This document shows, one piece after another, positions 5,320 to 46,759 of a stretch of 46,759 nucleotides of DNA. The DNA comes from Babesia bigemina (lineage: Eukaryota). The stretch spans positions 3,472,001 through 3,518,759 of the forward strand of contig NC_027218.1 of assembly GCF_000981445.1 (NCBI RefSeq), given 5' to 3'. The notes below the pieces were generated by a model. It worked only from the letters and a program-made list of their open reading frames with translations, ran no database searches and was not told the origin of the DNA. The position numbers and the translations under genes were made by a program. Each line of letters begins with the position of its first letter. The first letter of the stretch is position 1.

Positions 5320-5424
5320 GGGCAGTGGCAAGAGGTGGGAGAGGGGAAGTGAAGGGTGACAAGGCACAAGTTATTGTTATGGTTTATAGAGGTCATAGCG
5401 ATAATATGGCGAGGTAATTCGAGG
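5320..5424 (-). promoter_or_regulatory. Conserved ~100-bp pyrimidine-rich 5' leader between array A and each gene; also ~12237-12340, 19260-19364, 25875-25932 (short form), 31948-32048, 39922-39999, 45785-45888
   Basis: - strand consensus TCGAATTACCT..C...A.TA.CGCTATGACCTCTATAAACCAT...AATAACTTGTGCCTTGTCACCCTTCACTTCCC(C)TCTTCCACCTCTTGCCACTGCC. The conservation is seen directly; a regulatory role is inferred only from position. Confidence 0.5.
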
Positions 5425-5790
5425 GATGTAGAGTTGTAAAGGGAGCGATGTAGAGTGGGTTAAGGGGCGATGTAGAGTGGGTAAAGGAGCGATGTAGAGT
5501 GGGTTAAGGGGCGATGTGGAGTGGATAAAGCAGCGATGTAGAGTGGACAAAAGGGGCGATGTAGAGTGGGTTAGGGAGCGATGTAGAGTGGGTTAAGGAG
5601 CGATGTAGAGTGGGTTAAGGAGCGATGTGGAGTGGATAAGGGAGCGATGTAGAGTGGATAAAGGGGCGATGCAGAGTGGGTAAAGGGGCGATGTAGAGTG
5701 GATAAAGGGGCGATGTAGAGTGGGTTAGGGAGCGATGTAGAGTGGATAAAGGGGCGATGTAGAGTGGGTAAAGGGGCGATGTAGAGTGGA
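5425..5790. repeat. G-rich 22-bp (21-22) tandem array A, ~16 units
   Basis: Unit CGATGTAGAGTGG(ATAA/GTTA)(A/G)GG(G/A)G. Confidence 0.95.
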
Positions 5791-5811
5791 TGATAAATAC
5801 CACTCTGATCA

Positions 5812-5995
5812 CCATGTCATCGCTGCCGTGACCATGTCATCGCTGCCGTGTCCATGTCATCGCTGCCGTGACCATGTCATCGCTGCCGTGTCCATGTCAT
5901 CGCTGCCGTAACCATGTCATCGCTGCCGTGACCATGTCATCGCTGCTGTGTCCATGTCATCGCTGCCGTGACCATGTCATCGCTGCCGTGACCAT
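5812..5995. repeat. 20-bp tandem array B, ~9 units
   Basis: Unit CATGTCATCGCTGCCGTGAC. Confidence 0.95.
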
Positions 5996-5999
5996 CAAC

Positions 6000-6190
6000 T
6001 TGGTCAACACGTTGGTCAGCACGTTGGTCAGCACGTTGGTCATGGCATTGGTCACCACCTTGGTCAGCACTTTGGTCAGCACTTTGGTCAGCACTTTGGT
6101 CAGCACTTTGGTCAACACTTTGGTCAGCACTTTGGTCATGGCATTGGTCATCAACTTGGTCACCACTTTGGGCAGCATCTTGGTCAGCAC
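6000..6190. repeat. 12-bp tandem array C, ~16 units
   Basis: Unit TTGGTCAGCAC(T/G/A/C) with variants such as TTGGTCATGGCA. Confidence 0.95.
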
Positions 6191-6192
6191 AG

Positions 6193-6315
6193 TTGTTAAC
6201 TACTACACAATCACATACAACGATCAATGAGTTACACAAAACATTAGACAACAATTAGTTGTATAGGTGAGTAGGTGATGCTAGGTGAGTGTAGATAGTA
6301 AACACGTGAGTACGA
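6193..6315 (-). other. Conserved ~120-bp 3' flank (putative 3' UTR); also at ~13827-13947, 20039-20160, 26931-27053, 34733-34855, 41102-41225
   Basis: After each stop codon (- strand): TAATCGTACTCACGTGT...CACTCACCTAGCATCACCTACTCACCTA...GTATGTG.TTGTGTA.TAGTTAAC, in all six complete copies with minor variation. Confidence 0.8.
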
Positions 6316-9300
6316 TTATGGTTGCAGGTAAAACACCCTGTTAAGCTTGTTAACACGTGCAGCTGCAAGCAGTGATTGGGCGGCTATACGATGCGATGAG
6401 GGACTATGCAAATGCGATTTGATGTGGAGCAGGTCGAGGCGGATGACCATGATGTGCAGGAGGTACAAGAGAGAGAGGAGCCAGAGGGTTAGGACAAGGT
6501 AGGAGAAGGGTTCACGGATTCTCCACAGGAACATGTCACATTCGTCAAATAATTTTGAGAAGTAATTGGAACGCGTGACCTTGAACAATATTGTTTGGAA
6601 ATCAAAACATTTCATGGCGGATTTGCGAGCATCCAACGTCGGCGCGTCTTGGAATGCGAAACCATATCTGTACAATATTGGCATGACACCGCTACATTTG
6701 ACCATTGAGGTGCACTGACATGTATTATCGAGTACACCATGTTCGCCCTTTTTACATTTGCCATTCAAGCAGCTTCTGCAGCCCCAATCGTTGCAAAAGA
6801 TGTCTTTGAAAGCGGCAAGGAGACTTTCAAGATACTTATGGAAATTCCACGGGAGATATAAAATCCAGGAGAGATATGCGTTGGAATGCTTGTTCGCTAA
6901 ATACAGATATGAATCGGCACATAACGATTCGAGATATGGAGCGGAGTACTGGTTTTTATTGCACGTGCTTGACGATGTAAGATCCATCAGATGACTGTCT
7001 TCGCACTTGGGTAGAGCAGCTGTGCAATGACTGTAAGCGTTGCTAACTGCATCTGTGAGTTCGGATGCGTTCTTATACAGATCGATTGATACACCGCTGA
7101 TTGACTTGTCTATGGACTTCTTCAGAGTCTGGGTGTCGTACTTAGAATGGTTATTCCATCCAGTGACCAGCGACAAGGTGAAAGAGAAATGCTCGGGCAA
7201 TGTTGACGGCGCTTTGGGAGCTAGGCAAAGGAAGGAAGCGAGATAGGGGTTGCCGAAGAATTTGGCCAGCACGTTACACAGGTCTTTACCTGTCCTCATG
7301 CTACCTGAGAATCCCCTAAACCCGAGAGGCGTTAAGCAGGGCATCCCTGGCTTATTAGTTGGACAGGTTTTACATTCGTATCTACAGCCGATTGAAGTCA
7401 GCTTGTGAGGCAGGCAACCGACGTGACAGTCGGATAGGAAGGACATCAATGGCGACTTTGGTTGGCAACTTGGTTGGCTGTTTACTTGGCAATTTGGTTG
7501 GCACTTTGACTTGTCAGTTGGATGCTCCTTGCAAGGCCAGTTAGCCGGCAGCACGTCCCTACCGTAAGTGCACTGCAACCAACCGTTATGCGATGCGCTG
7601 ACGGAACATTGTGTCTGCAAAAATCTGAGTGGCGGAAACAGTCTGCGGAGGATGTCCAGAAGCATGTCCAGGCAATCTTCGCCGGAAGCGGGGTACTTGA
7701 ATTTAAATGAGTTATTGCACAGGTCACTGCCATAGATGGTGCCCGCGTCTCCAGTGCCAGCGATACTAACGAGAAGATCGTACGATGATGAACAGAGAAT
7801 CTCAAGCGCTTCAGTTATGCCATACCACGTGATTTTCCTTGGATTAGCATCTAGGTATGAGGATTCGTGGTCAAGCAGTGAGATACCATCGACGTCTGCA
7901 AGCGCTTTTTTGTTTGCGTTATCAAGCAAGTTACCGATACCATCCTGTAGCAACGCAGGACGTGCGACACTGTATGGAAGGCCACTCAGCCAAATCAACA
8001 TTTCATATACAGAGCATGGTTGCCTCCTCGCGAAGTGAGTTGAGTAGTGGCACACTTCATTATACCTGTCTATGTGATGTAGAAGGCAATCGAGAAGATC
8101 AGCGAAATTAAAGGGCGCCTGTTTTTTCGGCTCGCCTTCGTCAGTCAAATTCGATTCGCAAGCTGTAAGATGTGCTTTAACTTGGACGTTTGAAATTTCT
8201 TCGTTAAACTTCGCAAGCATATTTTGACCCGTTATACTTGTCCTGCATTGCGTTTCTCCGTCCTTCGAATCCTCTCTTTTGGCGACCAGGTATCCGCAAC
8301 GTTGTAGGAACAGACCAAGTGGGTTGTCCTCATTTTTCATGCTTATGCAAAGCACTTTATTTTCCCAGTTGTCTTCACATTTATTTATCAATCTGATTAT
8401 GTCTTCGTAAATGAAGTTGAAAATCGTCAGGAGTATTTTGGCGAGCTTAGTGCCATCCGGGGTTGACACAGTAATCCATCTGGCAGGCCCACTTAAGTCA
8501 ACTATTTGTCCGGTTTTCTTAACCAAATTATCGAAGTCAATACGATCAGGATGACCATCATACACCCTCACGTACGCCTTTTCCAACTCCTTCACGAAAT
8601 CGCGCAACCCTGGGACGAGACTCAAGGACACTTTCTGGGCGGTGTTGGCATACGTCTGCTGGGCGAAGTCGTCAATCTCGCTTTTTACCTTCGCCAGATT
8701 TTTGGTAAAAGTGTGGTCGTAGCGGGTGAGGGAGGTGAGCAGGGTGTCGAGAGCGTTGGAAATTGCGTTGACACGCATAGTTGTGGGAAATAGATCGAGT
8801 TGTTTCTGCAGATCGTCGAAGATATTCTTGAAGCTGTTTTTAACAATTGGCGAAAAGTCGAGGAGCTTCTTTTCGGCTGACCGGGGAGGAGAGAGAGTTT
8901 CAGTGAAAGAACTAAGCGGTGGCATGAATTTGCTGCGCAATTTTGATAGATAGCCTTTGAGGCCTAGTTGTTTGTCAAACTTGATGATTTCTTCAATTTT
9001 ATCAAACCGTTTGTTCACGATTTTTTGAAGGTCGGTAACCTGTTTTCTCTTCCTTGCGGTGTAAAGCATTTTAGCTTTTTCTTGCAATTCTTTGAACGCC
9101 TGTCTAATTCGTATGTCGACAGCATGACGCAGCTTATTGAACGATTTTTCAGTTTCATCATGGGTTACCCTTAGCATCTCATCCGTATATTTCATACATT
9201 CTTCCAACTCTTTCCCAACGGCTGAGACATTGGCCCTTACCAGAGTTACCTGCTCACCAAGCTTGCCTATATCTTTTTGCAATGTAGCCAATGCTTCGTA

Positions 9301-12102
9301 GACACTGCCTTCCATGGTGGCACTTTGGCCAACCTTGTTTGTCAAAAATTCATTAATTCTGTTGTGCAGTTTATCAGTTTGTTGTTGGATATCGGATATC
9401 CCATCAGATGAGCCGGCATCTGTGCTGTGAGTTATTGGAGTTTGCAGCTTCTGCATCTCAAGCTTTACTTCCTTAAGAGTATGCTTAAAACCTGCAGTTG
9501 TGCCATCAATAAGCTCTGTTATTTTTGTGTGCAGTTTATCAAACGCTTTATTGGCCGTTTCTTTAAGCAGCGTCTCTAGTTTGTTGTCAAATTGGTCGCT
9601 GGTTACCTTGGCCTTGATTGCCACGACTTTATTGACAAGGTCACCTTCAATGGGGAGAACGTTTTCGGCACCAATGGTTTGCTTAATGCCATTGTTAATA
9701 TTATCATGGAGGTTTTTAATTTGTGCGTGAACGAGACCTAACGCCACATCAATTTTGTACCCGTGGTCCGGTGTACCGAGAATTATATCTGTGTCCTCCA
9801 CATTGTTAAATTGTTTTCCAATGTCTACAGTTTGCGTTATAGCCTGCGTCAGATTACTAATCTTCAACACACCTACGAAACGCTGAAGTTCCGGTGCAGC
9901 TTGCTTGAATCTGTTTATTACAGAGTTCACAATGCCTTTAACTGCAGCTGTAAGATTTATGTCAGCATCTGTGTGAGCGACACTGGAACCGGATGTTTTC
10001 AATAATTTATCAATGGCCTTGACTGCCAACTCAATTGTTCCGTTCCCATCGGTATCCTCAAATTCAGACTCTAACTTTACAGAAAAGCTTGCATATTTCT
10101 CTGCAATGTTACTAACATTTGCATTATCCAATGCAGCTGCTACAGCGGCACTTTCAATATGGGTGTTGATGAAATCTGGAAGGTTGTTTGTAATCACGGA
10201 TTTAACGTTCCGTATTTTTGAAGGTCTGTCACCACCCTCAAGCTTCCTATCGTTGTTTAGTACATACTCAAATATTTTACCATATATTGCTCCATCATTC
10301 ACAAGTTCACCAATCCATGGCTTAAGAACAGCGACGAACTTCCCGCTGCCGAAACCTTCCGCATACGACCTGATGCCATTGACAATCTGCGTAAGACTTG
10401 AACCGCCGGGACTTGTTAATGTATCGACGAATCCCGTAAGCTCATCTTTCAACGCATCCCAATTGTGATATATGCTTGAATCTTCTGGCTTAGTGTGTCC
10501 CGCTTTTTTATCTCCGACATGCTGCTTAATACGACTCACTTGCCCCTCAATTTCTTCAAGAATGATCTTCACATGCCCTTTAACATTCGTTTCAATGACA
10601 TCTATGACTCCGTCAATTCGCTGTGCCAAGTTCCATGGATCATCACCATCGCCGTTTTTAAAATGCTCCAACGTTGTCCTTCGCATCTTCTCCTTGACCG
10701 TTGTGTCACTTTGTCTAAGCACCTGCATACGTTGATCCAAATATTCCACCAACTTCTTAATGGTCTTTTTTTCTCCTAGAACATCATCCTTAAGCTTATT
10801 TGCAGCCGCCAAAATACCTTCAACTTCTGGAACAAATTGTCCTTTGTACCTATCCAGAAGATTGGCCAACCCACCGCTTACCGTGTTGAAATGCCACTGG
10901 AGTCCGTCGTCGACAGACTTCTGTAGGTCGTAAAGTTGCTTTGATTTCATATTAAAAAGCTTTCCATAAAGTCCTCTGATCCACACATCTAATAAGTCTT
11001 GAAGCCACTTCCTTCTAGCATTAACAATTTCTTCGACATGCTGAAGCATGGCGTTCCACTTACTACCCGCCTCTTCATACATGTCCTTCAAGTCCTCGTT
11101 CCTAGCCGCCTCTTCGAACGTTCCCGTGGCCTGAACCAGCAATGAAATGTTACAATTTAACTTACCTAATAGCGTAGGATCAATGTGTTTTAAAGCCTTT
11201 TCGGCCTGGTCGGCAAGACTAACGTACCTCCCAGCTCGCTCAGTCCATTCCTTTACCTGCGTAATAAGGTTTTTGTCTTTTTCTTTTTCTATCTCATTTT
11301 TATCGCGTTCAACTAGATTTTTCATGACCTCTATGGGCTCTACAACTGCAGTAATTTTATTGTTCACCTCCCTCTCATACCCCTCCAACCACCCCTTCAC
11401 CGCGTCGACAGACGCCGCAAGCCCTTCACGACCGGAGCCAATTGAAGATTGTAATTTCTTAATAACTGTATTAATGTTATTACTCTCATTTTTATCATAA
11501 GTTGTCACTTCATTTTCGTTTTTCACCGCGCCAAGCACACCACTCAGAAATCCCATCACCCCGTCACACAGCCTATCCAGGTCAGAGTACACAATGCCAG
11601 TGCCATCGTAGCCTTTGGAGTCTTTGTTGAAGCCGAGGAAAGTCTCGATGCCAGAACAAAGATTCTCTAAGAGGTTTTTAGAAGGATTTTCACCACTTTT
11701 AAATTTACCATGAAATTCACAAAGCTTCTCCACTTTCTTCAAAGCCTCCAACTTGGAGTGCAATTCGGCTGAGTCAGCAGAGGGAGAGGGGGAAGGAAGA
11801 GAGTGATTATAGAGGTTATTAGGCTTACTAAGTATATCTTCAAGACGCTGAATTTCTTTACTAACTCGCTCACTAAGCTCACTAATTTTCTGGGTGTCAC
11901 CAGCCTGGACAGCAGAGTTGACAGACTCAGAAAGCTTAGTAACATGAGAAGAGTAATGATTTTTAAGGTCTTCATTACTGTTAATTTGGGCGATAATGGC
12001 ATATATAACGGCTTTCTTAACACTCTCACTTTGACCAACAAAAGCGCCAAGTTGACCAGCAAGGTGACCAAGGCTAATGAGCTTGGAGTCAATGTCCTCC
12101 AA
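6316..12102 (-). CDS. ves1: ves1/VESA1-like variant surface antigen, copy 2 (ORF start is TTG; first in-frame ATG at 11556)
   Basis: 1928-codon ORF with YSDLDRLCDGVM, a Cys-rich CQP/PCLTPLGFRGFSG domain, TM FSYLVLTLWLLSLLYLLHIMVI and the conserved tail ending RVFYLQP. Confidence 0.85.
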   Translation of the reverse strand: MEDIDSKLISLGHLAGQLGAFVGQSESVKKAVIYAIIAQINSNEDLKNHYSSHVTKLSESVNSAVQAGDTQKISELSERVSKEIQRLEDILSKPNNLYNHSLPSPSPSADSAELHSKLEALKKVEKLCEFHGKFKSGENPSKNLLENLCSGIETFLGFNKDSKGYDGTGIVYSDLDRLCDGVMGFLSGVLGAVKNENEVTTYDKNESNNINTVIKKLQSSIGSGREGLAASVDAVKGWLEGYEREVNNKITAVVEPIEVMKNLVERDKNEIEKEKDKNLITQVKEWTERAGRYVSLADQAEKALKHIDPTLLGKLNCNISLLVQATGTFEEAARNEDLKDMYEEAGSKWNAMLQHVEEIVNARRKWLQDLLDVWIRGLYGKLFNMKSKQLYDLQKSVDDGLQWHFNTVSGGLANLLDRYKGQFVPEVEGILAAANKLKDDVLGEKKTIKKLVEYLDQRMQVLRQSDTTVKEKMRRTTLEHFKNGDGDDPWNLAQRIDGVIDVIETNVKGHVKIILEEIEGQVSRIKQHVGDKKAGHTKPEDSSIYHNWDALKDELTGFVDTLTSPGGSSLTQIVNGIRSYAEGFGSGKFVAVLKPWIGELVNDGAIYGKIFEYVLNNDRKLEGGDRPSKIRNVKSVITNNLPDFINTHIESAAVAAALDNANVSNIAEKYASFSVKLESEFEDTDGNGTIELAVKAIDKLLKTSGSSVAHTDADINLTAAVKGIVNSVINRFKQAAPELQRFVGVLKISNLTQAITQTVDIGKQFNNVEDTDIILGTPDHGYKIDVALGLVHAQIKNLHDNINNGIKQTIGAENVLPIEGDLVNKVVAIKAKVTSDQFDNKLETLLKETANKAFDKLHTKITELIDGTTAGFKHTLKEVKLEMQKLQTPITHSTDAGSSDGISDIQQQTDKLHNRINEFLTNKVGQSATMEGSVYEALATLQKDIGKLGEQVTLVRANVSAVGKELEECMKYTDEMLRVTHDETEKSFNKLRHAVDIRIRQAFKELQEKAKMLYTARKRKQVTDLQKIVNKRFDKIEEIIKFDKQLGLKGYLSKLRSKFMPPLSSFTETLSPPRSAEKKLLDFSPIVKNSFKNIFDDLQKQLDLFPTTMRVNAISNALDTLLTSLTRYDHTFTKNLAKVKSEIDDFAQQTYANTAQKVSLSLVPGLRDFVKELEKAYVRVYDGHPDRIDFDNLVKKTGQIVDLSGPARWITVSTPDGTKLAKILLTIFNFIYEDIIRLINKCEDNWENKVLCISMKNEDNPLGLFLQRCGYLVAKREDSKDGETQCRTSITGQNMLAKFNEEISNVQVKAHLTACESNLTDEGEPKKQAPFNFADLLDCLLHHIDRYNEVCHYSTHFARRQPCSVYEMLIWLSGLPYSVARPALLQDGIGNLLDNANKKALADVDGISLLDHESSYLDANPRKITWYGITEALEILCSSSYDLLVSIAGTGDAGTIYGSDLCNNSFKFKYPASGEDCLDMLLDILRRLFPPLRFLQTQCSVSASHNGWLQCTYGRDVLPANWPCKEHPTDKSKCQPNCQVNSQPSCQPKSPLMSFLSDCHVGCLPHKLTSIGCRYECKTCPTNKPGMPCLTPLGFRGFSGSMRTGKDLCNVLAKFFGNPYLASFLCLAPKAPSTLPEHFSFTLSLVTGWNNHSKYDTQTLKKSIDKSISGVSIDLYKNASELTDAVSNAYSHCTAALPKCEDSHLMDLTSSSTCNKNQYSAPYLESLCADSYLYLANKHSNAYLSWILYLPWNFHKYLESLLAAFKDIFCNDWGCRSCLNGKCKKGEHGVLDNTCQCTSMVKCSGVMPILYRYGFAFQDAPTLDARKSAMKCFDFQTILFKVTRSNYFSKLFDECDMFLWRIREPFSYLVLTLWLLSLLYLLHIMVIRLDLLHIKSHLHSPSSHRIAAQSLLAAARVNKLNRVFYLQP

Positions 12103-12340
12103 GGCTCTTCTAGTAGCATCATCAGTAAGAGAATGGTCAGTATCAGCAAGTTATTATAAAGGTTTACAGAGGTCATAGCGTTAATAAGACGAGGTAATTC
12201 GAGGGATTTGGAGATAGGGTGAACATGATGGGATATGGCAGTGGCAAGAGGTGGAAGAGGGGAAGTGAAGGGTGACAAGGCAGGAGTTATTAGGATGGTT
12301 TATAGAGGTCATAGCGGTATTAAGGCGAGGTAATTCGAGG

Positions 12341-13273: not shown

Positions 13274-13294
13274 TGATAATCACCACTTAGGTCA

Positions 13295-13723: not shown

Positions 13724-13727
13724 CAAC

Positions 13728-13826
13728 TTGGTCAGCACCTTGGTCAGCACCTTGGTCAGCACATTGGTCAGCACCTTGGTCAGCACATAGGTCATTACGT
13801 TGGTCAACACGTTGGTCAGCACTTTA
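13728..13826. repeat. 12-bp array C, ~8 units
   Basis: TTGGTCAGCACN repeats. Confidence 0.93.
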
Positions 13827-37800: not shown

Positions 37801-39937
37801 TCCCTGCATTCTCTCTTAGCTTCTTAATGAGTTCTTCGGTCTCATCAATACTGGACTGAAGGGTTTTGATTTTTTTCTGAATTTCACCGTCTTCTGTCAT
37901 ATCATCGTCACTTGCAACATCCAATTTCTCAATTTGATCTTGTATATCTTTCTTAATACCACCGGTGACATCGTGTGTCCTACCATTAATTCTGAGATTG
38001 AGTGCTTCCTTGAACGCAGCTGTCCCCCTTAGTGCTGCAGACCTAAGGAGAGGGTTTAGTTGGTTTTGGGCGCTATCGATTTTGGAGTCAAACTCAGTTG
38101 TGAGAGCGTGGAAAACGTCGGATGGTTTCGGGTCTCCACCGTTGGCACTGCTTGCATTTTTTAGATACACTAACACTGATTCCATCGCGTTTGCAAAATT
38201 TAGATTCCCGTTGTTAGCTTGTGACAACTTTCTGCCGACGTCAGTATCCGGTTCCAATGGGTTTCGTTTATTCAAGGTGCTTACAAGAGCGGAGAAACGC
38301 GGCCTCCCCACTCCACTAGATGTATTGATTCCTGCCTTGATAGCCGTTGCCAACTCCTGGAGATAACCCCCAACCTGCTGCTTAATATCACCATAGAGCG
38401 TTTGTACATCACTATATAGCTTGCCTTTCAGATCGTAAAACTCGTGCTCTAACTCTGACGTAATGGTGTCATGAAGTTTCCCAAGCGTTACCAAATGTTG
38501 ACCAACTGTCATCAATATTTCTTGAAGATCACTTGCAACATCATCAGTGTCAATCTTCTCAACTTGTCTCTCTATACGCTCTATCTTCTGAACAATATCT
38601 CTCTCATATATGGTACTCAGATCATAGGCACTATCTACCGCCTGCTTCACGGATTCTAATGCCTCCTTCGTAGAGGCAATCAATTCTGTTAACCTAGTGG
38701 TACGTATGTGTCCAATGTGTCCGATTTGTTTTATAACTTCATCAAGTTTATTCTCAACTTTTATACGTAGTTCAGGTACTCTTTTATTTACGTCACTAAG
38801 GAGTTTCTGCTTCTGACTCCCCAATGAACTGTCCACCACTCGGCACGCTGCCTTTAAATCGTCAGTCGCCGACTTTTCAAGCACATTTACCGCACCATCA
38901 ATTTTTGCTAACGGCGCGACTAACTGTTTTTTGAGTTGTTCGTCAATGTTTTTCATGGCTTCGTTGGCCTCCCTAACTTTGTCTCCATACCCCTTAACCT
39001 GCCCTGACCAGGCAGTGAACTGTTTATCAAGCGTCATTGATTTTTGTTCCTCAACTTTCTTGACATTTTCATTTACGCTGTCTTCTAATTCATACAAAGG
39101 GCCACTTACTGCTGTAACTTCTTTACTGACTTTATTTTGGTAGCTGACTAGATGGCTTTTCACCTGACTAAGGACGGCCTTCAGTCCTTCAGCGCCTTTA
39201 CCATTATTGTCGTTTAATAAATTAATAATTCTATTAAAATCATTTGGTGACATCGATTTGTCGTATTTTTTAACTGCATCATCATCTTTCACCCCCTCAA
39301 GCACACCACTCAAAAATCCCATCACCCCGTCACACAGCCTATCCAAGTCAGAGTACACAATGCCAGTGCCGTCGTAGCCTTTGGAGTTAGGGGAGTAACC
39401 AAGAAAAGTCTGAAGGCCGTCACATAAATGTGTTAAAAGATTATCATTAGCATGTTTTTCAAGTTCTTTAGCAAATGTTTCAAGTTTCTTAACAATTTCT
39501 CTCTGCTGCTCCACTTCCTGCAAACCCTTCTGCCTCTCCTCCTGAGGGAGGTAATGGGTCTTAGCACAGTCATTTTTAGAGGCTTCGGCTTTTTTGATTT
39601 TAGCGTTTAGTTCATCAATTTGCTTTTTAGAGTCATCGGTTTGATTAGCAAGCTTAGATTTAAGTTGCTCTTTAGTATCATCAATAGTCTTCTGTTGCTG
39701 CTTACAACAGGGCTGGACAGAGGGATGGTCTTTAGAGGACTCATCAGTAGGTTTTCCACGGCAAAGGAGCTTGGATTGGCGGTCATTAAGGGAGTTAGTA
39801 GCCTTCTCAATAGCCTCCTCAATCAACTTTTTCAAAGCTTGAGACAACTTGGTAAGACCATCACTGCCACCATTCCCATACCTAACCTGGATCAACCAGT
39901 CGATGGACTCAGTCAGAAGGTAAGTGAAGGGTGACAA
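34856..39937 (-). CDS. ves1: ves1/VESA1-like variant surface antigen, copy 6 (ORF start is TTG; first in-frame ATG at 39322)
   Basis: 1693-codon ORF beginning LTESIDWLIQVRYGNGG..GLTKLSQALKKLIEEAI, which resembles the N-terminal 'IDWL' motif of Babesia VESA1-type proteins. TM and tail are conserved. Confidence 0.85.
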   Translation of the reverse strand: MSPFTYLLTESIDWLIQVRYGNGGSDGLTKLSQALKKLIEEAIEKATNSLNDRQSKLLCRGKPTDESSKDHPSVQPCCKQQQKTIDDTKEQLKSKLANQTDDSKKQIDELNAKIKKAEASKNDCAKTHYLPQEERQKGLQEVEQQREIVKKLETFAKELEKHANDNLLTHLCDGLQTFLGYSPNSKGYDGTGIVYSDLDRLCDGVMGFLSGVLEGVKDDDAVKKYDKSMSPNDFNRIINLLNDNNGKGAEGLKAVLSQVKSHLVSYQNKVSKEVTAVSGPLYELEDSVNENVKKVEEQKSMTLDKQFTAWSGQVKGYGDKVREANEAMKNIDEQLKKQLVAPLAKIDGAVNVLEKSATDDLKAACRVVDSSLGSQKQKLLSDVNKRVPELRIKVENKLDEVIKQIGHIGHIRTTRLTELIASTKEALESVKQAVDSAYDLSTIYERDIVQKIERIERQVEKIDTDDVASDLQEILMTVGQHLVTLGKLHDTITSELEHEFYDLKGKLYSDVQTLYGDIKQQVGGYLQELATAIKAGINTSSGVGRPRFSALVSTLNKRNPLEPDTDVGRKLSQANNGNLNFANAMESVLVYLKNASSANGGDPKPSDVFHALTTEFDSKIDSAQNQLNPLLRSAALRGTAAFKEALNLRINGRTHDVTGGIKKDIQDQIEKLDVASDDDMTEDGEIQKKIKTLQSSIDETEELIKKLRENAGKKDSDKDGVKDLVEALKDKVGGTLTNIHDVNVDLEAFNASIENAIQAAESTANSARQEIASGLETLISGLTAAIEVVFAGVKSDVQAFFATVREGQLSTFRGIIVEQNEQIADVIKDDEMNGVKGLLGKIKDGLNSLKSNNNVKTVTGLSAKAYSLLKNIVTYSNGDLQKLDRNFDQLQNFEKYIEKLASALNLYAHFSHPVSLRLSALSSATSALDPQALPDAGRPVLKALQAGMLGFVEELEKGYVNRYDGGESIKQWVKKGEKDVLTPEGKNGAKVFLTVVDTLFHELEDLRKGCKTNGKWNDEHVRQYEMDNGGDITPNSLGLWFSTHGFKVSRNEHEQNGELDRRKTGAQIMQYLMKQLNMPPNYKPIYDNQNQQEGTLNTLHEHLETYFRVNHYYIPPNPRAPTTVYEMLQWLCGLWYNPVRNGLIKTMVDLFGDNGELDVYMPEEIKKYLKRPALYPTTFMRLLPAVCAQSYTVLVGVQGHGHAEGRYACDFYTNSDKLAYPTNMNTLLCTLQEYLKRLHHQLYFLYEQCSHDSELSGWQDCHYGRHVGGSAWNCNAMQCVNQEGNQLGDQTCKQTCDQHPNCGLKSPLQSFLEDGLQGFLPHALSSKGATLSCSTCLKTPPGMPCRTPMGFPEISSTASHTKTGDHIYSALLDFCCTDASPLNVLCAMLNTLLPSAPKTLGDMFAFYSNFTYRWGMDGNEHKYKAFNDAATAANLEREYSKPNVGYLFSESHSAAWKGHSAGSLASLVCTSNDAVVCGPYLRPINKSIYVMFSSKHADKYLSWIVYLTQTFYDLLKKLYEECNSKCGSKGYNCHAKACIKGCPTTSSKETTPSHNEQCKSIVTCKYTMPTLCKYGFTLWDKHKLNGDDNINKKRTCKDFSTVFEETFKKDSHLVQFFTAIDEFIFTIRAPFIWLNVALWLLSVLYLIIVMVIRLDLLHIKSHLHSPSSHRIAAQSLLAAGRVNKLNRVFYLQP

Positions 39938-39999
39938 GGCACAAGTTATTGTGATGGTTTATAGAGGTCATTGCGGTATTATGGCGAGGCAATTGGAAG

Positions 40000-40255
40000 G
40001 ATGTAGAGTGGGTTAGGGAGCGATGTAGAGTGGATTGGGGAGCGATGTAGAGTGGGTTAGGGAGCGATGTAGGGTGGGTAAAGGGGCGATGTGGAGTGGG
40101 TAAAGGGGCGATGTAGAGTGGATAAAGGGGCGATGTAGAGTGGATAAAGGGGCGATGTAGAGTGGATTAAGGGGCGATGTAGAGTGGATTAAGGGGCGAT
40201 GTAGAGTGGGTTAAGGGGCGATGTAGAGTGAGTTAAGGGGCGATGTAGAGTGGAT
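40000..40255. repeat. 22-bp array A, ~11 units
   Basis: Same unit. Confidence 0.95.
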
Positions 40256-40275
40256 GATAATAACCACTTTGGCCA

Positions 40276-40459
40276 CCATGTCATCGATGCCGTAACCATG
40301 TCATCGATGCCGTGACCATGTCATCGCTGCCGTGACCATGTCATCGCTGCCGTAACCATGTCATCGATGCCGTGACCATGTCATCGCTGCCGTGACCATG
40401 TCATCGCTGCCGTAACCATGTCATCGCTGCCGTGACCATGTCATCGCTGCCGTGACCAT
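40276..40459. repeat. 20-bp array B, ~9 units
   Basis: CATGTCATCG(C/A)TGCCGT(G/A)AC. Confidence 0.95.
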
Positions 40460-40463
40460 CAAC

Positions 40464-41085
40464 TTGGTCATGGCATTGGTCACCACTTTGGTCAGCACAT
40501 AGGTCAGCACATAGGTCAGCACCTTGGTCACCACTTTGGTCATCACTTTGGTCAACACTTTGGTCAGCACATTGGTCAGTACATTGGTCACCACTCTGGT
40601 CATGGCATTGGTCACCACGTTGGTCATGGCGTTGGTCACCACTCTGGTCATGGCATTGGTCAGCACATTGGTCAGCACTCTGGTCATGGCATTGGTCAGC
40701 ACATTGGTCAGCATCTTGGTCACCACTTTGGTCAGCACATTGGTCAGCACATTGGTCAGCTACTAGGTCACCACTCTGGTGAGGTGCTTGGTCACCACGT
40801 TGGTCATGGCATTGGTCAGCGCTTTGGTCACCACTTTGGTCAGCACATTGGTCAGCACTTTGGTCAGCACGTTGTTCATGGCATTGGTCAGCACTTTGGT
40901 CAGCACGTTGGTCAGGTGCTTGGTCATGGCATTGGTCACCACGTTGGTCATGGCATTGGTCAGCACCTTGGTCAGCACCTTGGTCATGGCATTGGTCATC
41001 GCATTGTTCAGCACCTTGGTCAGCACATAGCTCACTCACCAGGTCACCACTTTGGTCAGCACATTGGTCAGCACCTTGGTCAGCT
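40464..41085. repeat. 12-bp array C, ~52 units
   Basis: TTGGTCAGCACN, TTGGTCATGGCA and TTGGTCACCACN units. Confidence 0.95.
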
Positions 41086-41225
41086 ACTAAATCACCACAT
41101 CAGTTAACTATTACACAATCACATACACCTATTAATGAGTGATGCAACAGATTAAAGCACAATTCATATGTTAGGTGAGTAGGTGATATGCTAGGTGAGT
41201 TTAGATATTGAACACGTGAGTACGA

Positions 41226-44200
41226 TTATGGTTGCAGATAAAACACCCTGTTAAACTTGTTAACGCGTGCGGCGGCAAGTAGTGATTGCGCGGCGATACG
41301 ATGCGATGATGGTGAGTGCAAGTGAGATTTGATGTGGAGCAGGTCGAGGCGGATGACCATGATGTGGAGGAGGTAGAGGAGGGAAAGCGACCAAAGGGCG
41401 ACGTTGAGCCAGATGAAGGGTGAGCGGATCTTGAAGATGAATTCGTCGCATTTGTCGAAGAGTGTTTGGAAATATTTAGATTTTAGCACATTTTTGAATT
41501 GAGCGTGGAAATTGCGGCAATATCTCCACTCATCCGTGGACATTAGTTTCGATGCGTCCCCAAATGAAAATCCGTAAGTATGGAATACGCTCATTACACC
41601 GCGACATTCGACGATTCCACGGCACTTACAATTGTAGTCTTCACCGTGTTTACCCTTCTTACATTTCTCGTTTTGCAGACAGCCACGGCACCCCCAATCC
41701 TGGCAGGATATATTGCAGAAAGAATCAAATAGGCCTTGAAGATATCGATATAGCGTCCAAGGTAAGTAGACAGCCCATGATAGATATAGGTTGCAATGTT
41801 TTGGGGCGAGGTAATAGTATGCATCAGAGTAGAGAGATGATAGGTAGGGGCCGCAGTGGACGTTGTCCTTCGCAGCAACCATACATGAGTCGCGCATTGA
41901 TAGACTCTTCAAGTCAGCATTTGTAGCTGTTGGATGCATCATAGCTTTACCGCCATGCGTACTATGATATGCATTACGAAAAGCAGTGATAAAAGCTGAT
42001 GCTTCGTTGTAAAGGTCCATCGATGTTTCCTTAACGGATGTTTCCAGTGCATCTTGTAATGTAATAACTCCATCGTGTTTGTTCGCATTAGAAGCATTAA
42101 GTCCTGCCGCAAGCGACAATGCAAATCCGAAGTGTTCTGGCAGACTGGCTGGCGGTTGAGGAGAAAAGGTGAATAGCGCTAACAGTTTCTCGTTATTGAA
42201 AAATTCATCGAGCACATCGCATATGTGTTTACCAGTTTTTGCGGATCCCGAGAAAGCTCTGAAGCCAAGTGGCGTCAGACACGGCTGTCCAGGCTGAGAT
42301 TTAGAGCACGTGCGACAGTCATACTTACATCCAATACTGCTAAGTTCATGCGGTAAACGACCGACTAGACAATCGGATAAATACGACTGAAGGGGGGAAG
42401 TTGGTTGGCAATTTGCTTTGCCTTTTGGTTGGCAGTTTGGTTGGCACGTTACTTCGTCGCTCGAGTGGTCGGTACATGTCCACTTGGTTGTTCTGACATC
42501 CTTTCCGTAGAAGCATTCTGACCAGCCGTGGAATTCAGCACCGAGTTTACACTGGCTATGTAAGAAGCGCAGTGGAGGTAGTAATCTACGCAGCATATCG
42601 ATCAGCATTTGCAAACAATCTCCTGCTTTGGGGGGATAGTGGAAATTAAGTGCGTTATTGCCGAAGTCGACTGCGTACATAGTGTACGCGTCTCCGTAGC
42701 CGAGTATTGTCGCTAATACGTCGTAGGATTTCGAACATAAGCGCGTCACTGCTGCTTGAGTGCGTTCCAATTCGATTGAGTGCGGATATGCCGGTACGGG
42801 TTCATCGCCGACAACTGCAGCGGCTAGGTCACCAACTGTGACCTGCTTAGCAGGATCCACAAATAAGTCACTAACGGCGTCATGTAGCAGATCGTCATAC
42901 ACGTTATTTGAAGGCAGACCAGATATCCAGCACAGTATCTCGAATATATTAGATGGACGCTTCTTGGCGGATGCACTAGTTACGTGGCCGACTCTGTAAT
43001 ATGTTTGGAGACAGCCGTGAAGCCGCTTCAGGGGGCCATTATCTTGATCATGATCATGTTTCGTGTATACGTGTTCATCGTCGTCCTTTACCACTAGTTT
43101 GTAGATATGGAAACCTGTCTTCGTTACCTTATCCTGAAGCTCCCATTGTTGTTTGTCACCTGTAGCGACATGGTATCCATGGTTGATGAAGAATTTCCCA
43201 AATTCGGTTGTGTCATTTACCTGTTGAGATCTCCATCTAACGCTGCCATATTTCTTCAAAGCTTTCAAAGCGTTGTGAGTAATGCTGAGTGCCGTCAGGA
43301 ACACCTTCGCGCACTTCCTCCCGTACTCGGTTATTTCGGTGTTGTCAGCAGGATTTGGCATGGTTTTAACTGTTTTCGCTTCAGATGACGTTTTTGGTTT
43401 CACCAACTGATCAGCATAAATTTGCCCCGAGTACCTGCTCACGTACTGCTTCGCGAGCTCCCCGTGGAACGCCTGGACGCCGGCCTTGAGGACGTTGAGC
43501 AGCGGGGAGGCCTCGGCGAATGAGGAGGGGGCGAGGGTGGTGAGCTGCGCTTGGAGGTCGGCGAGCTTGCGGGAGACGGCGGCGTCGAAGTGGCGTTGGG
43601 AGTGCATTGTGGACAGGAGGGAGGAGAGGGCCTGGGTGAGGGGGGTGAGACGGTCAGGGGAGAGGTCGGACTGGGATTGGAGGGAGGTGAAGAATTTAGT
43701 TACGAATTCTTTGGCTTTGTTCGAGAATATTTCGAGTGATGAATCGGATACTTTTTGGAGGTTATGTATAGTGAAGGTACCGTGCAGCTTGTTCATGAGA
43801 CCTTTGAGGCCGGTGTGGAAGTCGGAGTCAATTAAACCAATAATTTCCAAAATTTGTGCAGTAACAGACTTATTAAGAGATGTCAAATCAACTCTTTTCT
43901 GCTCCGAGTAAAGCGTCTGCGTTTGCTCTTCTAGGTCGTTAAGAGCGTTTTGAACGTACTTCTGTAAATTTGTGTGCAGCACCGCAAGAGCACCATTTGC
44001 AGTGTCTTGAGCGTCTTGGTGGAATTGTACAGCGGCATCTATGGAGGATTGCAATGCCTCGTTGGCAGTGGTGACTTTCGGTAAAATGGCTTTTACTGCT
44101 GCCTGAATGCCTTCTATCTTAGTTTTCAATTGAGTCATATACGCATCAGCAGCTTCACGGTTTTGTTCTATAACGGTAGGTATTCCTTTTAGAGCACTTA

Positions 44201-45860
44201 GCTCACCGCTAATTAGATTCACCGCCTCCTCTAGCGTTTCTGCCGCTGTATTATACATTGTCATCACTTGTGCCACGTCAATCTCATTAATGCGATTACT
44301 ACTCATCTTAAATTTTTTTACGGCTTCCTCGATGGCTGTATTGGCTGCATCCTTAATCCGTTGTGTCGCATCGTTGTGAAATGTATTGACCGCTCTTACT
44401 AGATTTCCGTTATCTTCGTCGCCTATGGCTGCAATTAAGTCGGTGATAAACTTGGCCAGAGAGCTTTCTGCAGGATCGCTGGATGACCCTCCCTCACCGT
44501 ATATGGCATTTTTCAAGCCTGCGAAAGAGATAGGAAGTTTATCAAAAATATTTTTTACACCTACTTCATACTGCTTTTTCAGAGCCTTAGACTCTGAAGT
44601 AATTTCCGCAGTGGTAAGATCAAGCGTTTTTCTGGCATCTTCAAGATCCTTCAACGCATCTTTAACAAGAGCGCTATCTTTGTTTCCTTGTACATCTGCG
44701 GCAAGTTCATTAACCTCTTTCTTCAACTGCTGCAAATCCCCCTGCACAGCGGCATTAATACCGCTGACCTTATCGCGAACAACGCTAAATTGCTTGATCA
44801 GAGGAGTGCTATCGGTGATGTCGACAAACCTATTAATACAGTCACTAATCTGAATAAACAGCAGCAAAAGCTTTTCTTTGCAGCCTCTATCGTAACCATT
44901 AATTTCAGAACTGAGCAGATCATCCGCCAACTTCTGAGCATTTTGTACCGCCTCTTCAATCTTCTTCAAATACATTGTTCTTTGGTGTGTTAGGCTGCCA
45001 AGCTTCAAGCGAATCAATTCAAATTTCTGATTCAAAGCGCTCTGCACTCGCTGTATCTGTGTCTGAATGTATGTCTTCACTTCGGCGTGCTTTTTATCAA
45101 ACTCACTACCTAAATTTTCCACGGAGTTCCACAAGCGCGCATCATTCACTGAATTCCAGAAGTTGTCAACAAGCTGCTTAACAAAGTCGATCTTAGACGA
45201 TATTGTATTACGTAGCTTAGTATCTACGCCATCTAGAAGTTCAACTGACATCAAGGCCTTATCCAGGTAGTCCCCCGCAAAGGTCTGCCAGTTTTGCAAT
45301 TGCTCCTTTATTGGTTTGTATTCCATTTTAAGCGACACGTGCTTACTGAGTAATTCTTGTAACTCATTCAACGGCTCCACCACCTTTCTATGCCTATCCT
45401 CCACCCCGCTCACCCATTCCCTAATCCCCCGACTGACCGCGACAATACTACTATCAAAATGCTCTTTTCTATTATATTGAGCGAGTTTAATTTTTTTAAG
45501 TATGCCAGGCAGATTATTATTGTATTTTTCGAGGTTTTCGTTCTTATTTACGTCAGTGATTATACTAAACAAAAATCCCATCACCCCGTCACACAGCCTG
45601 TCCAGGTCGGAGTACACAATCCCAGAGCCGTCGTAGCCTTTGGACTCAGAGTTGAAGCCGAGGAAAGTTTCGAGGCCAGAGCAGAGGTTATTAAGGATGT
45701 TAGTAGGGTTGTTATTTGAGGTATTTTTAGGGTTCAAAATTTTACCAAATTTCTTGTAAAGCTCCCTAGGCGGCACATGGTCAGGGCAGTGGCAAGCGGT
45801 GGAAGAGGGGAAGTGAAGGGTGACAAGGCACAAGTTATTATTGTGGTTTATAGAGGTCAT
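41226..45860 (-). CDS. ves1: ves1/VESA1-like variant surface antigen, copy 7 (only copy open from the leader ATG; conserved DGVM ATG at 45581)
   Basis: 1544-codon ATG-initiated ORF with all family motifs, TM and tail. Confidence 0.87.
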   Translation of the reverse strand: MTSINHNNNLCLVTLHFPSSTACHCPDHVPPRELYKKFGKILNPKNTSNNNPTNILNNLCSGLETFLGFNSESKGYDGSGIVYSDLDRLCDGVMGFLFSIITDVNKNENLEKYNNNLPGILKKIKLAQYNRKEHFDSSIVAVSRGIREWVSGVEDRHRKVVEPLNELQELLSKHVSLKMEYKPIKEQLQNWQTFAGDYLDKALMSVELLDGVDTKLRNTISSKIDFVKQLVDNFWNSVNDARLWNSVENLGSEFDKKHAEVKTYIQTQIQRVQSALNQKFELIRLKLGSLTHQRTMYLKKIEEAVQNAQKLADDLLSSEINGYDRGCKEKLLLLFIQISDCINRFVDITDSTPLIKQFSVVRDKVSGINAAVQGDLQQLKKEVNELAADVQGNKDSALVKDALKDLEDARKTLDLTTAEITSESKALKKQYEVGVKNIFDKLPISFAGLKNAIYGEGGSSSDPAESSLAKFITDLIAAIGDEDNGNLVRAVNTFHNDATQRIKDAANTAIEEAVKKFKMSSNRINEIDVAQVMTMYNTAAETLEEAVNLISGELSALKGIPTVIEQNREAADAYMTQLKTKIEGIQAAVKAILPKVTTANEALQSSIDAAVQFHQDAQDTANGALAVLHTNLQKYVQNALNDLEEQTQTLYSEQKRVDLTSLNKSVTAQILEIIGLIDSDFHTGLKGLMNKLHGTFTIHNLQKVSDSSLEIFSNKAKEFVTKFFTSLQSQSDLSPDRLTPLTQALSSLLSTMHSQRHFDAAVSRKLADLQAQLTTLAPSSFAEASPLLNVLKAGVQAFHGELAKQYVSRYSGQIYADQLVKPKTSSEAKTVKTMPNPADNTEITEYGRKCAKVFLTALSITHNALKALKKYGSVRWRSQQVNDTTEFGKFFINHGYHVATGDKQQWELQDKVTKTGFHIYKLVVKDDDEHVYTKHDHDQDNGPLKRLHGCLQTYYRVGHVTSASAKKRPSNIFEILCWISGLPSNNVYDDLLHDAVSDLFVDPAKQVTVGDLAAAVVGDEPVPAYPHSIELERTQAAVTRLCSKSYDVLATILGYGDAYTMYAVDFGNNALNFHYPPKAGDCLQMLIDMLRRLLPPLRFLHSQCKLGAEFHGWSECFYGKDVRTTKWTCTDHSSDEVTCQPNCQPKGKANCQPTSPLQSYLSDCLVGRLPHELSSIGCKYDCRTCSKSQPGQPCLTPLGFRAFSGSAKTGKHICDVLDEFFNNEKLLALFTFSPQPPASLPEHFGFALSLAAGLNASNANKHDGVITLQDALETSVKETSMDLYNEASAFITAFRNAYHSTHGGKAMMHPTATNADLKSLSMRDSCMVAAKDNVHCGPYLSSLYSDAYYYLAPKHCNLYLSWAVYLPWTLYRYLQGLFDSFCNISCQDWGCRGCLQNEKCKKGKHGEDYNCKCRGIVECRGVMSVFHTYGFSFGDASKLMSTDEWRYCRNFHAQFKNVLKSKYFQTLFDKCDEFIFKIRSPFIWLNVALWSLSLLYLLHIMVIRLDLLHIKSHLHSPSSHRIAAQSLLAAARVNKFNRVFYLQP

Positions 45861-45888
45861 AGCGATAATATAACGAGGTAATTCGAAG

Positions 45889-46759
45889 GATGTAGAGTGG
45901 GTAAAGAAGCGATGAAGGGTGGGTTAAGGGGCGATGTGGAGTGGATAAAGGAGCGATGTAGAGTGGATAAGGGGCGATGTAGAGTGGATAAATAGGCGAT
46001 GTAGAGTGGGTTAAGGGGCGATGAGGAGTGGGTAAAGGAGCGATGTAGAGTGGGTTAAGGGGCGATGTAGAGTGGATAAAGGGGCGATGTAAGGTGGATA
46101 AAGGGACGATGTAGAGTGGATAAGGGGCGATGTAGAGTGGATTAAGGGGCGATGTAGAGTGGATAAGGGAGCGATGTGGAGTGGGTAAGGGGCGATGTAG
46201 AGTGGGTTAAGGGGCGATGTAGAGTGGGTTAGGGAGCGATGTAGAGTGGGTTAAGGGGCGATGTGGAGTGGGTTAGGGTGCGATGTAGAGTGGATAAGGG
46301 GCGATGTAGAGTGGATAAAGGGGCGATGTAGAGTGGATAAAGGGGCGATGTAGAGTGGATAAAGGGGCGATGTGGACTGGGTTAAAGAGCGATGTGGAGT
46401 GGGTAAAGGGGCGATGTAGGGTGGGTTAAGGGGCGATGTAGAGTGGATAAGGGAGCGATGTAGAGTGGATAAAGGGCGATGTAGAGTGGATAAAGGGGCG
46501 ATGTAGAGTGGGTAAAGGGGCGATGTAGAGTGGGTAAAGGGGCGATGTAGAGTGGGTTAGGGAGCGATGTAGAGTGGGTTAGGGAGCGATGTAGAGTGGG
46601 TTAAGGGCGATGTAGAGTGGATAAAGGAGCGATGTAGAGTGGATTAAGGAGCGATGTGGAGTGGGTAAAGGAGCGATGTGGAGTGGGTTAAGGGGCGATG
46701 TAGAGTGGATGAAGGAGCGATGTAGAGTGGATAAGGGAGCGATGAAGAGTGGGTTAGGG
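45889..46759. repeat. 22-bp array A, at least ~39 units, truncated by window edge
   Basis: Same unit. Confidence 0.95.

Follow-up and report, generated by a model that had tools for sequence, protein, structure and literature searches.

A three-part minisatellite linker in an array of 5'-truncated ves1b-type genes of Babesia bigemina: a candidate recombination zone

Seven genes occupy the window, by which is meant the whole 46,759-nucleotide stretch of Babesia bigemina DNA that was analysed. All lie head-to-tail on the minus strand and are ves1b-type by their protein matches, which bears out the original prediction that they are ves1-like. Their products carry the conserved VESA C-terminal domain, which ends in a hydrophobic helix and the family tail, with identities of up to 59% (E 1e-220); the protein search with an array-gene query lists the best 120 of 370 matches, and none of the seven proteins matched a Pfam family at cut-off.

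g1, 1..5261, minus strand: ves1b-type; matches the complete paralogue P0055 only from residue 267; 3' end beyond the window.
g2, 6316..12105, minus strand: ves1b-type; P0055 match from residue 128; 100% identity to B. bigemina P0078 over 1903 aa.
g3, 13948..19131, minus strand: ves1b-type; P0055 match from residue 128; last 483 aa identical to P0034 (another contig).
g4, 20161..25833, minus strand: ves1b-type; P0055 match from residue 128; in-frame stop at 25138-25140.
g5, 27054..31982, minus strand: ves1b-type; decayed P0055 match from residue 234.
g6, 34856..39916, minus strand: ves1b-type; matches canonical N-termini only from residue 13-15 (ESIDWLIQV); junction type shared with P0188.
g7, 41226..45725, minus strand: ves1b-type; P0055 match from residue 267.

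The window genes are nested 5' truncations at three points: mapped on P0055, they start at residue 15 (one gene), 128 (three genes) or 234-267 (three genes). The canonical N-terminus of complete family members, MxxKKLTDCPENLRE(A/S)IDW, is absent from all seven, and the first 45 amino acids of P0030, P0079, P0101 and P0116 match the window solely at g6, from residue 13-15. Each gene has an in-frame methionine within a conserved coding block, and the frame is open from this methionine onward in six of the seven; in g4, a stop codon follows after 45 codons. Because VESA1 is described as having no N-terminal signal peptide (PMC6630957), the missing N-terminus is no proof of lost export. Start sites annotated for public proteins are predictions.

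The genes are joined by a three-part repeat spacer, or cassette, of which TRF and motif counts gave six complete copies and a seventh cut by the window end. On the gene strand, each runs from the stop codon through a 3' flank (about 125-127 nt), array C (12-mer), array B (20-mer) and array A (22-mer) to a leader. The original prediction had the parts right but listed them as leader-A-B-C-flank; since the genes lie on the minus strand, the gene-sense order is flank-C-B-A-leader. Units by motif count are given in brackets.

Cassette 1, 5262..6315, minus strand: 3' flank 6315-6192; C 6191-6000 (16); B 5993-5812 (9); joint; A 5789-5425 (17); leader from 5424.
Cassette 2, 12106..13947, minus strand: flank; C 13823-13728 (8); B 13721-13295 (20); A 13272-12341 (43); doubled leader start, ATGs 12312 and 12176.
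Cassette 3, 19132..20160, minus strand: flank; C 20036-19881 (13); B 19874-19813 (3); A 19790-19365 (20); doubled leader start, ATGs 19336 and 19202.
Cassette 4, 25834..27053, minus strand: flank; C 26929-26702 (18); B 26695-26225 (23); A 26204-25933 (13); short leader, ATG 25904.
Cassette 5, 31899..34855, minus strand: flank; C 34731-34348 (32); B 34341-34294 (2); extra C-like units; A 34258-32052 (100); leader ATG 32023.
Cassette 6, 39917..41225, minus strand: flank; C 41087-40464 (49); B 40457-40276 (9); A 40253-40000 (12); leader ATG 39971.
Cassette 7, 45726..46759, minus strand, cut by the window end: A 46752-45889 (40 visible); leader ATG 45860.

Part order and orientation are identical in all six complete spacers, so that the predicted cassette is real, and the motif counts agree with the copy-number ranges given for it earlier (TRF gives 8.0-50.9 copies for C). 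The stop-side flank measures 127 nt up to the first C unit in five of the six, the C-B joint reads GTTGAT in four and differs by one letter in the remaining two, and all A arrays end at the identical point of the 22-mer unit. While the joints are thus fixed, the earlier term "invariant" is slightly too strong: the B-A joint itself resembles a C unit (spacer 5 has three such C-like units), the leader start is duplicated in spacers 2 and 3, and the B array includes 25-nt unit variants. A scan of the window found no match to the A 12-mer core (up to 2 mismatches) or the B 16-mer core (up to 3 mismatches) outside the spacers or on the opposite strand. The C unit is also intragenic, with 10 matches (up to 2 mismatches), every one on the sense strand. 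Part of the stretch is present in 5 of 24 public sequencing runs, with no parasite RNA run among those listed as carrying it; contigs from three public runs bridge the B-A joint, and loose contig ends (34 in total) continue as A, B or C units in all 23 that were listed.

Ten interior bins of g6 have no contig cover in four of four runs, and run X4 is uncovered at the leader and the B-A joint; these gaps were not counted as evidence. A literature search of open-access text found no description of the cassette; subscription papers, among them the first report of the B. bovis LAT and older work on B. bigemina DNA probes, may bear on its novelty, as may supplement 1 of PMC4066756.

Array A is strand-biased (75% purine) and contains TTAGGG 53 times. 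Telomere mimicry was rejected, as the Babesia telomere repeat is TTTAGGG (PMC10463595), which occurs 0 times in A, and the motif content of A is not above composition. As regards a possible G-quadruplex recombination trigger, G4Hunter scores of at least 1.2 occur in 24% of A windows versus 1.1% in coding DNA, yet in 43% of shuffled A, and high-stringency G4 motifs number 26 against a shuffle mean of 34; by these counts, the motifs in A do not exceed base composition. A hairpin of B (GCGATG) with A (CATCGC) was rejected, as it has no stable fold (z -0.7), and Rfam returned 0 matches.

The leader is non-coding. Its ATG is in frame and open into the gene in one of the seven genes (cassette 7, ATG 45860); in cassette 1, the frame from ATG 5396 stops at codon 42, and the ATGs of cassettes 5 (32023) and 6 (39971) are out of frame. 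The ratio pN/pS, based on small counts, is 0.61 and 1.32 in the leader versus 0.16 in the conserved block and 0.13 in the last 45 codons. The frame breaks and these ratios reject the leader as a genuine N-terminal peptide. A leader exon spliced into frame is improbable: no splice-site pair of consensus strength is common to the copies and none is found in g4, and no donor of that strength is shared, though a weak donor-like site recurs in five genes. Of 130 database proteins, 25 show traces of the leader, and these come from many contigs; in about 17 database proteins, the leader frame is open into the gene. For the distal leader, an alignment with coding DNA rich in Ser/Pro was obtained (p 0.004-0.006 versus g2, uncorrected for 24 comparisons).

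Two coding elements recur in every gene.

45578..45641, minus strand: conserved coding block KGYxGxGIVYSDLDRLCDxVM, 64 nt, one per gene; others at 39382, 31805, 25332, 18642, 11616 and 5177.
28272..28325, minus strand: coding 12-bp repeat (xxDQ/xxNQ or CQPN tetrapeptides), C-like, about 1.2 kb before the stop; counterparts near 956, 7505, 15170, 21399, 36103 and 42448.

The block sits about 50-190 codons into the retained gene part, is 80-98% identical among genes and, with its low pN/pS, is a candidate internal recombination junction. The best C-like triplet falls at the same coding repeat in all seven genes (codon-shuffle p 0.005 in four, 0.025-0.055 in three), and array C is, to judge from this comparison, a copy of the gene-internal repeat. 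Derivation of B from C is weakly indicated (p 0.04 for the 20-mer, 0.30 for the 25-mer). Neither A nor B matched coding DNA significantly in 14 of 14 scans (p at least 0.05), and no match to coding DNA was found for the 3' flank. The original prediction included neither the truncation at the 5' end nor the non-coding character of the leader, nor that C is of coding origin.

Identity between copies is 82-95% in the flank, 67-92% in the leader and 50-55% in the gene interiors, with shuffled DNA at 52%. Exact inter-unit matches of 30 nt or more account for 87% of A, 73% of B and 40% of C, together with 54-57% of the flank, block and last codons and 0.8% of the interiors. The cassette sits in a zone of high inter-copy similarity that flanks unalignable interiors, and within it two A arrays share an exact tract.

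19497..19745, minus strand: 249-nt tract in A array 3, identical to 25933-26181.
25933..26181, minus strand: 249-nt tract in A array 4, identical to 19497-19745; one end exactly at the A-leader junction.

The tract comprises 10 units of 6 variants in identical order; the next-longest match is 89 nt, and 0 of 300 shuffles exceeded 4 shared units. The leader starts that adjoin it are 73% alike. Such a tract points to recent exchange within the A arrays, the evidence for which is this single tract, of a kind that an assembly error could also produce. Its presence in two neighbouring spacers makes the spacer a likely recombining linker. Three truncation classes have the identical A-leader junction, from which it follows that the cassette was joined repeatedly to different gene ends.

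Whole-genome linkage of the cassette to genes was approached indirectly, through locus tags and the N-termini of proteins. The canonical N-terminus is present in 32 of 33 B. bigemina matches, with 29 of the 33 on the 3.52-Mb contig, which is of chromosome size; in B. ovata, 34 of 37 matches to this N-terminus lie on its 3.70-Mb contig. Among proteins matching at the C-terminus, it is found in 6 of 101 from B. bigemina and 0 of 19 from B. ovata. Complete and truncated genes are intermixed in the C-terminal tree. At least 30 identical residues are shared by 11 of 3503 complete-truncated pairs (0.3%; up to 64 residues), 126 of 6328 truncated-truncated pairs (2.0%) and 6 of 465 complete-complete pairs; sharing across the two classes is thus rarer than within either.

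Published proteomics gives as its most abundant VESA1b an entry with the complete gene BBBOND_0303890 (P0030) at its head. A gene model with the coordinates of g1 has 12 peptides (7 quantified) and a value of 394,377 against 988,928 for this top VESA1b (40%); the g3, g7 and g2 models have one quantified peptide each, and peptides are assigned to at least 13 array-type gene models. In the proteomics table of PMC4066756, array gene models appear as "hypothetical protein" and 18 other entries as BbigVes1b. As the proteome came from another, non-clonal isolate and was searched against reference models, its peptides cannot be placed at the locus. Peptides on array models fit copying into an expressed gene and, equally, direct expression.

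The reading preferred here, at about even confidence, is that the cassette is the minisatellite linker of a 5'-truncated ves1b array, likely a recombination zone that maintains and reshuffles a donor archive of antigen sequences, which are likely copied into complete ves1b genes elsewhere. It builds directly on the part order, the 5' truncation, the leader that does not code, the conserved ends enclosing interiors that cannot be aligned, the shared A tract and the match of C to the coding repeat. A, B and C would misalign between neighbours or chromosome ends, and the resulting unequal exchange and conversion would alter copy numbers, make the ends uniform and bring gene bodies into new combinations. 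For a complete gene to receive sequence productively, transfer would start at the internal GIVYSDLDRLCD block, the likely 5' junction, or downstream of it, and would finish in the 3' flank or the C-terminal domain; a start in A would not serve, since what follows A is a headless 5' end. Scraps of the gene itself may have supplied part of the linker: the cysteine-rich domain, through its 12-bp repeat, would be the source of C, and a Ser/Pro-rich N-terminal stretch that of the distal leader.

The study of BbigVes1b in B. bigemina (Jackson et al., 2014; PMC4066756) reported 28 ves1b insertions in chromosome 3 and two dominant VESA1B proteins, and suggested that non-coding flanking repeats and conserved C-termini might help recombination. 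It concerns the same proteins and C-terminal domain as the window genes; in its accessible sections, unlike in the window, neither spacer repeats nor a 5'-truncated tier is described.

More tentatively, and as a possibility that is on balance unlikely, B. bigemina, and probably B. ovata, would have a two-tier ves1b system, with about 30 complete, mostly interstitial genes as expression sites and headless donor arrays at chromosome ends. A dedicated, partly gene-derived three-part satellite would organise the arrays; through its likeness to the coding repeat 1.2 kb upstream, C would provide a second stretch of homology for exchanging C-termini, and the block would be a CRJE-like junction. The description of Pneumocystis msg-I (PMC10622565) offers several parallels: silent subtelomeric genes without the promoter-bearing 5' part, much as the window genes are 5'-truncated; a short conserved coding element as presumed junction, comparable with the block; intergenic DNA more conserved than coding interiors; and strand-biased purine content. 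The differences are that Pneumocystis has one UCS per genome and a CRJE at the very start of each silent gene, whereas there are at least 32 complete B. bigemina genes, three truncation points and a block about 50-190 codons inward; minisatellite arrays are not part of the CRJE description in those sections. If such a two-tier system, not recognised before, is true, the satellite would be the first cis-element to be defined for antigenic variation in piroplasms.

Tandem duplication alone would link the spacer to every gene. A passive origin, in which one ancestral truncated gene and its spacer were so duplicated, slippage expanded A, B and C, concerted evolution kept the ends alike and the repeats recombine as any minisatellite would, without selection for antigenic variation, is rather improbable. 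The match of C to the coding repeat and the alignment of the distal leader with Ser/Pro-rich DNA are as expected of debris, and the absence of a fold, Rfam match or G4 excess over composition, together with B arrays of 2-3 copies in two spacers, also fits. Against it, three arrays, their order and their joints are kept in six of six spacers though the interiors are at random identity, the cassette joints recur in other sequencing runs, and the junction common to three truncation classes implies repeated attachment.

Less probable still is a regulatory role, with A and the leader as promoter/5' UTR or silencer and the flank and C as 3' end signal of a subfamily of short VESA1b products made in place from the block methionine and switched epigenetically. 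Long open frames from that methionine, coding constraint at both ends, non-coding leader and flank conserved at 67-95%, the purine bias and TTAGGG content of A, and peptides on array-type models, one at 40% of the top VESA1b, would suit such an element, as would the in situ switching implicated in B. bovis ves1 (PMC7485966). The peptides, however, come from the other isolate and are not assignable to a locus, B. ovata and 32 complete genes of B. bigemina still carry the lost N-terminal motif, g4 has its early stop, and the true Babesia telomere repeat is missing from A.

In B. bovis, with its ves1 LAT and truncated non-LAT ves1 genes, the loci are described (Brayton et al., 2007, PMC2034396; PMC7485966; PMC6630957) as head-to-head alpha/beta pairs that have a short bidirectional promoter and convert by microhomology, 75% of them at sites other than telomeres and centromeres; the window array is instead head-to-tail, of a single family and with a fixed three-array spacer. 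Gene-derived repeat blocks 3' of the coding region, with a B. bovis precedent in PMC2034396, are represented in the window by C. The homology at B. bovis conversion tracts is described as local and 2-35 bp long, or absent, and as bearing no relation to conserved regions (PMC7485966); repeats on the flanks therefore do not have to serve as anchors.

The original prediction compared the cassette with trypanosome 70-bp repeats as a recombination anchor, and named a silencing or boundary element as further possible roles. The similar zone flanking unalignable interiors, the 249-nt tract and the leader traces in proteins of many contigs sustain the part about recombination; the direct analogy fails, because a conversion that began in A would leave a complete locus with a headless gene. 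T. brucei VSG genes have a conserved 3' end. According to PMC4858185, the VSG archive consists, like the window, of directional antigen arrays with variable-length repeats before each gene; the 70-bp repeats also occur in the expression site, and their manipulation showed access to archival genes. The window repeats precede headless genes and lie downstream too, and where a T. brucei conversion would deliver a usable 5' end, the leader is open in 1/7 and the canonical N-terminus present in 0/7. An expression site with a long cassette copy, into which whole array genes are converted via A upstream and the 3' flank and C downstream, is highly improbable. In its favour, every gene has upstream repeats and a conserved 3' end in fixed orientation, the leader is open in about 17 database proteins, and in B. 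caballi a contig end is the origin of the dominant ves1c transcript (PMC10463595). Against it, such conversion would in 6/7 cases bring in a headless gene together with a leader that does not code, the top VESA1b entry is headed by a complete gene and no cassette-bearing expression site is known.

Antigen variation at the erythrocyte surface is largely unstudied in B. bigemina, which does not have paired loci as B. bovis does. Dividing ves1b between complete genes and arrays of headless ones singles out candidate expression sites and donors, and the block, C-terminal repeat, flank and A/B/C arrays are fixed landmarks for counting breakpoints in clones. It also follows that the start codon is false or internal in many public models of ves1b genes, and that the product of the "SpeI-AvaI" diagnostic PCR, a test in long use, is a ves1b segment present in many copies, a point that matters for the sensitivity of the test and for its dependence on the strain.

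The seven long minus-strand ORFs of the window (g1-g7) belong to the ves1b type of variant erythrocyte surface antigen genes. Searching with the last 545 residues of g7 produced 370 matches, and the best 120 of these divide into 101 proteins from B. bigemina and 19 from B. ovata. The g2 product is 100% identical across 1903 residues to the stored protein P0078 (source name BBBOND_0314010), and g1, g3 and g7 fit the distances between the published gene models 0314000, 0314020 and 0314060. Six complete spacers separate the genes, and a seventh runs off the end of the window. In gene sense they read as follows.

Stop codon, then flank, ~125 nt
Array C, 12-mer, 8-49 units by motif count (8-51 by TRF)
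GTTGAT
Array B, 20-mer, 2-23 units
C-like joint
Array A, 22-mer, 12-100 units
Leader, then the next gene

The original prediction of a fixed cassette between divergent genes was borne out. The order of parts is kept, and between-copy identity is 82-95% for flanks, 67-92% for leader starts and 82-91% for the last 150 coding bases, while gene interiors are 50-55% alike, equal to the shuffled baseline (52%). Departures are minor: the leader start is doubled in spacers 2 and 3, spacer 5 has additional C-like units, and B includes 25-nt variants. A motif search of the window found no A or B core elsewhere or on the opposite strand.

Complete ves1b proteins begin with MxxKKLTDCPENLRE(A/S)IDW. Among the window genes, a search with four canonical N-termini matched only g6, and only from residue 13-15. 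Gene starts were placed by alignment on P0055, a complete paralogue, which indicates that the window genes are three nested 5' truncations.

g6: starts at residue 15
g2, g3, g4: start at residue 128
g1, g5, g7: start at residues 234-267

The leader ATG is conserved, and in one of seven cases its reading frame continues open into the gene. Small counts gave leader pN/pS values of 0.61 (16 codons) and 1.32 (24 codons), with changes even across codon positions, and values, also from small counts, of 0.16 for a conserved coding block and 0.13 for the last 45 codons. This 64-nt block, encoding KGYxGxGIVYSDLDRLCDxVM, is kept in all seven genes (80-98% alike). No splice pair of consensus strength common to the window genes was found. 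Because the distal leader is colinear with Ser/Pro-rich ves coding DNA (p 0.004-0.006, uncorrected; also in the g5 alignment), it is probably decayed coding sequence.

Beyond the window, the view rests on proxies: stored proteins, locus tags and contigs of public sequencing runs. Leader-derived residues open 25 of 130 stored proteins, all from B. bigemina and spread over many contigs; the B. bigemina leader peptide as query drew none of its 13 matches from B. ovata. The canonical N-terminus matched 70 proteins, 33 from B. bigemina (motif in 32; 29 on a 3.52-Mb contig) and 37 from B. ovata (34 on a 3.70-Mb contig), whereas canonical starts occur in 6 of the 101 B. bigemina and none of the 19 B. 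ovata C-terminal matches listed, a biased and partial sample. B. ovata thus shows the same split. This distribution, which agrees with the 28 ves1b insertions in chromosome 3 reported in the accessible part of the B. bigemina genome paper (PMC4066756), suggests two tiers, with complete genes dispersed and truncated genes in arrays. The array extends past the window: published coordinates put five further reverse-strand 'hypothetical' models (4.9-5.6 kb, separated by 1.2-3.8 kb) in the 57 kb to its left. Locus tags, together with the window ending inside an A array, would place the array at a chromosome end; truncated models also occur at the lowest chromosome-3 locus tag and at a high chromosome-2 locus tag. 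The public runs X1-X4 cover many variants of the flank, C-terminus and block; in X1-X3 the leader is covered and the B-A joint bridged, and the 23 of 34 loose ends listed were all further repeat units.

Complete and truncated proteins are intermixed in a midpoint-rooted C-terminal tree of 107 rows, which sampled 40 of 102 truncated proteins and left out P0078 and proteins lacking a VESA end. Exact tracts of at least 30 residues were shared by 11 of 3503 complete-truncated, 126 of 6328 truncated and 6 of 465 complete pairs. In g3, the final 483 residues (window 13948-15400) match P0034 exactly, and two tracts in its C-terminal part, of 138 and 132 residues, match P0048 exactly, each a stored protein from another contig; these reflect either swapped C-termini or alleles duplicated in the assembly. 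Since P0055 holds, in order, the N-terminal segments of all three truncation classes and ends in an array-type tail, P0055 and P0132 are candidates for genes at expression sites or for parents of the arrays. Both are complete genes with a distinct MRHVPKKLTDCP start, on contigs of 10.7 and 8.4 kb. In B. ovata, about 16 long 'ebh' proteins (P0178-P0194, 2300-2800 aa) carry a variant ves1b N-terminal motif and a different C-terminus.

The best-supported reading, to which we give an even chance, has the cassette act as a linker that recombines within an archive of truncated donor genes. Misaligned arrays would reshuffle and homogenise archive units, and transfer into a complete gene would start at or after the internal block, because a start in A would swap a good 5' end for a headless one. 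A tract of 249 bases is identical between A array 3 (19745-19497) and A array 4 (26181-25933); it comprises ten units of six kinds in identical order (maximum of four in 300 unit shuffles), and no other match between two units exceeds 89 nt. Because the adjoining leader starts are only 73% alike and the interiors there unrelated, this looks like recent conversion confined to A, although it may be an assembly error. Against the archive, B. bovis conversion needs as little as 2-35 bp of homology or none, according to the available text of PMC7485966, and a merely passive spacer, without any such role, is an unlikely though serious alternative. The C profile matches the same coding 12-bp repeat in all seven genes, ~1.2 kb ahead of the stop codon (p 0.005 for four genes and 0.025-0.055 for the other three, all scoring far lower than the arrays do). 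The part seen of PMC2034396 offers a precedent in B. bovis, where repeat blocks derived from the gene lie downstream of ves1. B resembles C weakly (p 0.04), and scans against coding DNA detected no source of A or B. Purines make up 75% of the plus strand of A, whose mean G4Hunter score of ~1.0 is equalled or exceeded by shuffled A; the array lacks the Babesia telomere repeat as given in the available part of PMC10463595.

A regulatory element serving expression in place is rather improbable. The published proteome comes from a different isolate, which was non-clonal; it gives the g1 model 12 peptides, 7 of them quantified, at 40% of the top VESA1b, and it assigns further peptides to at least 12 other array-type models (PMC4066756, in part); such assignments count against a donor archive, as does the lack of an N-terminal signal peptide in VESA1 (PMC6630957, in part). 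The top VESA1b entry there is headed by P0030, a complete gene, and 14 of 18 entries labelled BbigVes1b are among the complete genes found here. A direct equivalent of the T. brucei 70-bp repeats (as described in the accessible text of PMC4858185) is very doubtful, since conversion from A would bring a headless 5' end; of the anchor proposed by analogy with them, a recombining role stands at even odds and conversion from A does not. By the same argument Pneumocystis msg-I genes are the nearer likeness, although their single site and junction at the start, per the available part of PMC10622565, were not found in B. bigemina.

Truncated donors, repeat-flanked archives and G4-prone DNA near B. 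bovis ves loci are already known as kinds. No description of the cassette or truncated tier was found in the literature, where coverage of subscription papers was thin, nor in the accessible portions of the B. bigemina, B. ovata (PMC5660447) and B. caballi (PMC10463595) genome papers or the reviews PMC9047050 and PMC6630957. The cassette anatomy makes antigenic variation in B. bigemina testable, with the function of the repeats still putative.

The conserved block also bears on diagnostics. The nested-PCR primers BiIB and BiIBN of the B. bigemina 'SpeI-AvaI' assay, from Table 2 of PMC7909277 (seen in part), match at or just before it.

45610-45663 and six other conserved blocks, minus strand: primer sites, by primer match

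BiIBN matches all seven genes with 2-3 mismatches and BiIB five of seven with 2-5, while the reverse primers match weakly, in the variable region; the matches suggest that the assay targets a ves1b segment present in multiple copies. In g4, an in-frame stop lies at window 25138-25140, 45 codons from the block Met, and is followed by 1658 open codons.
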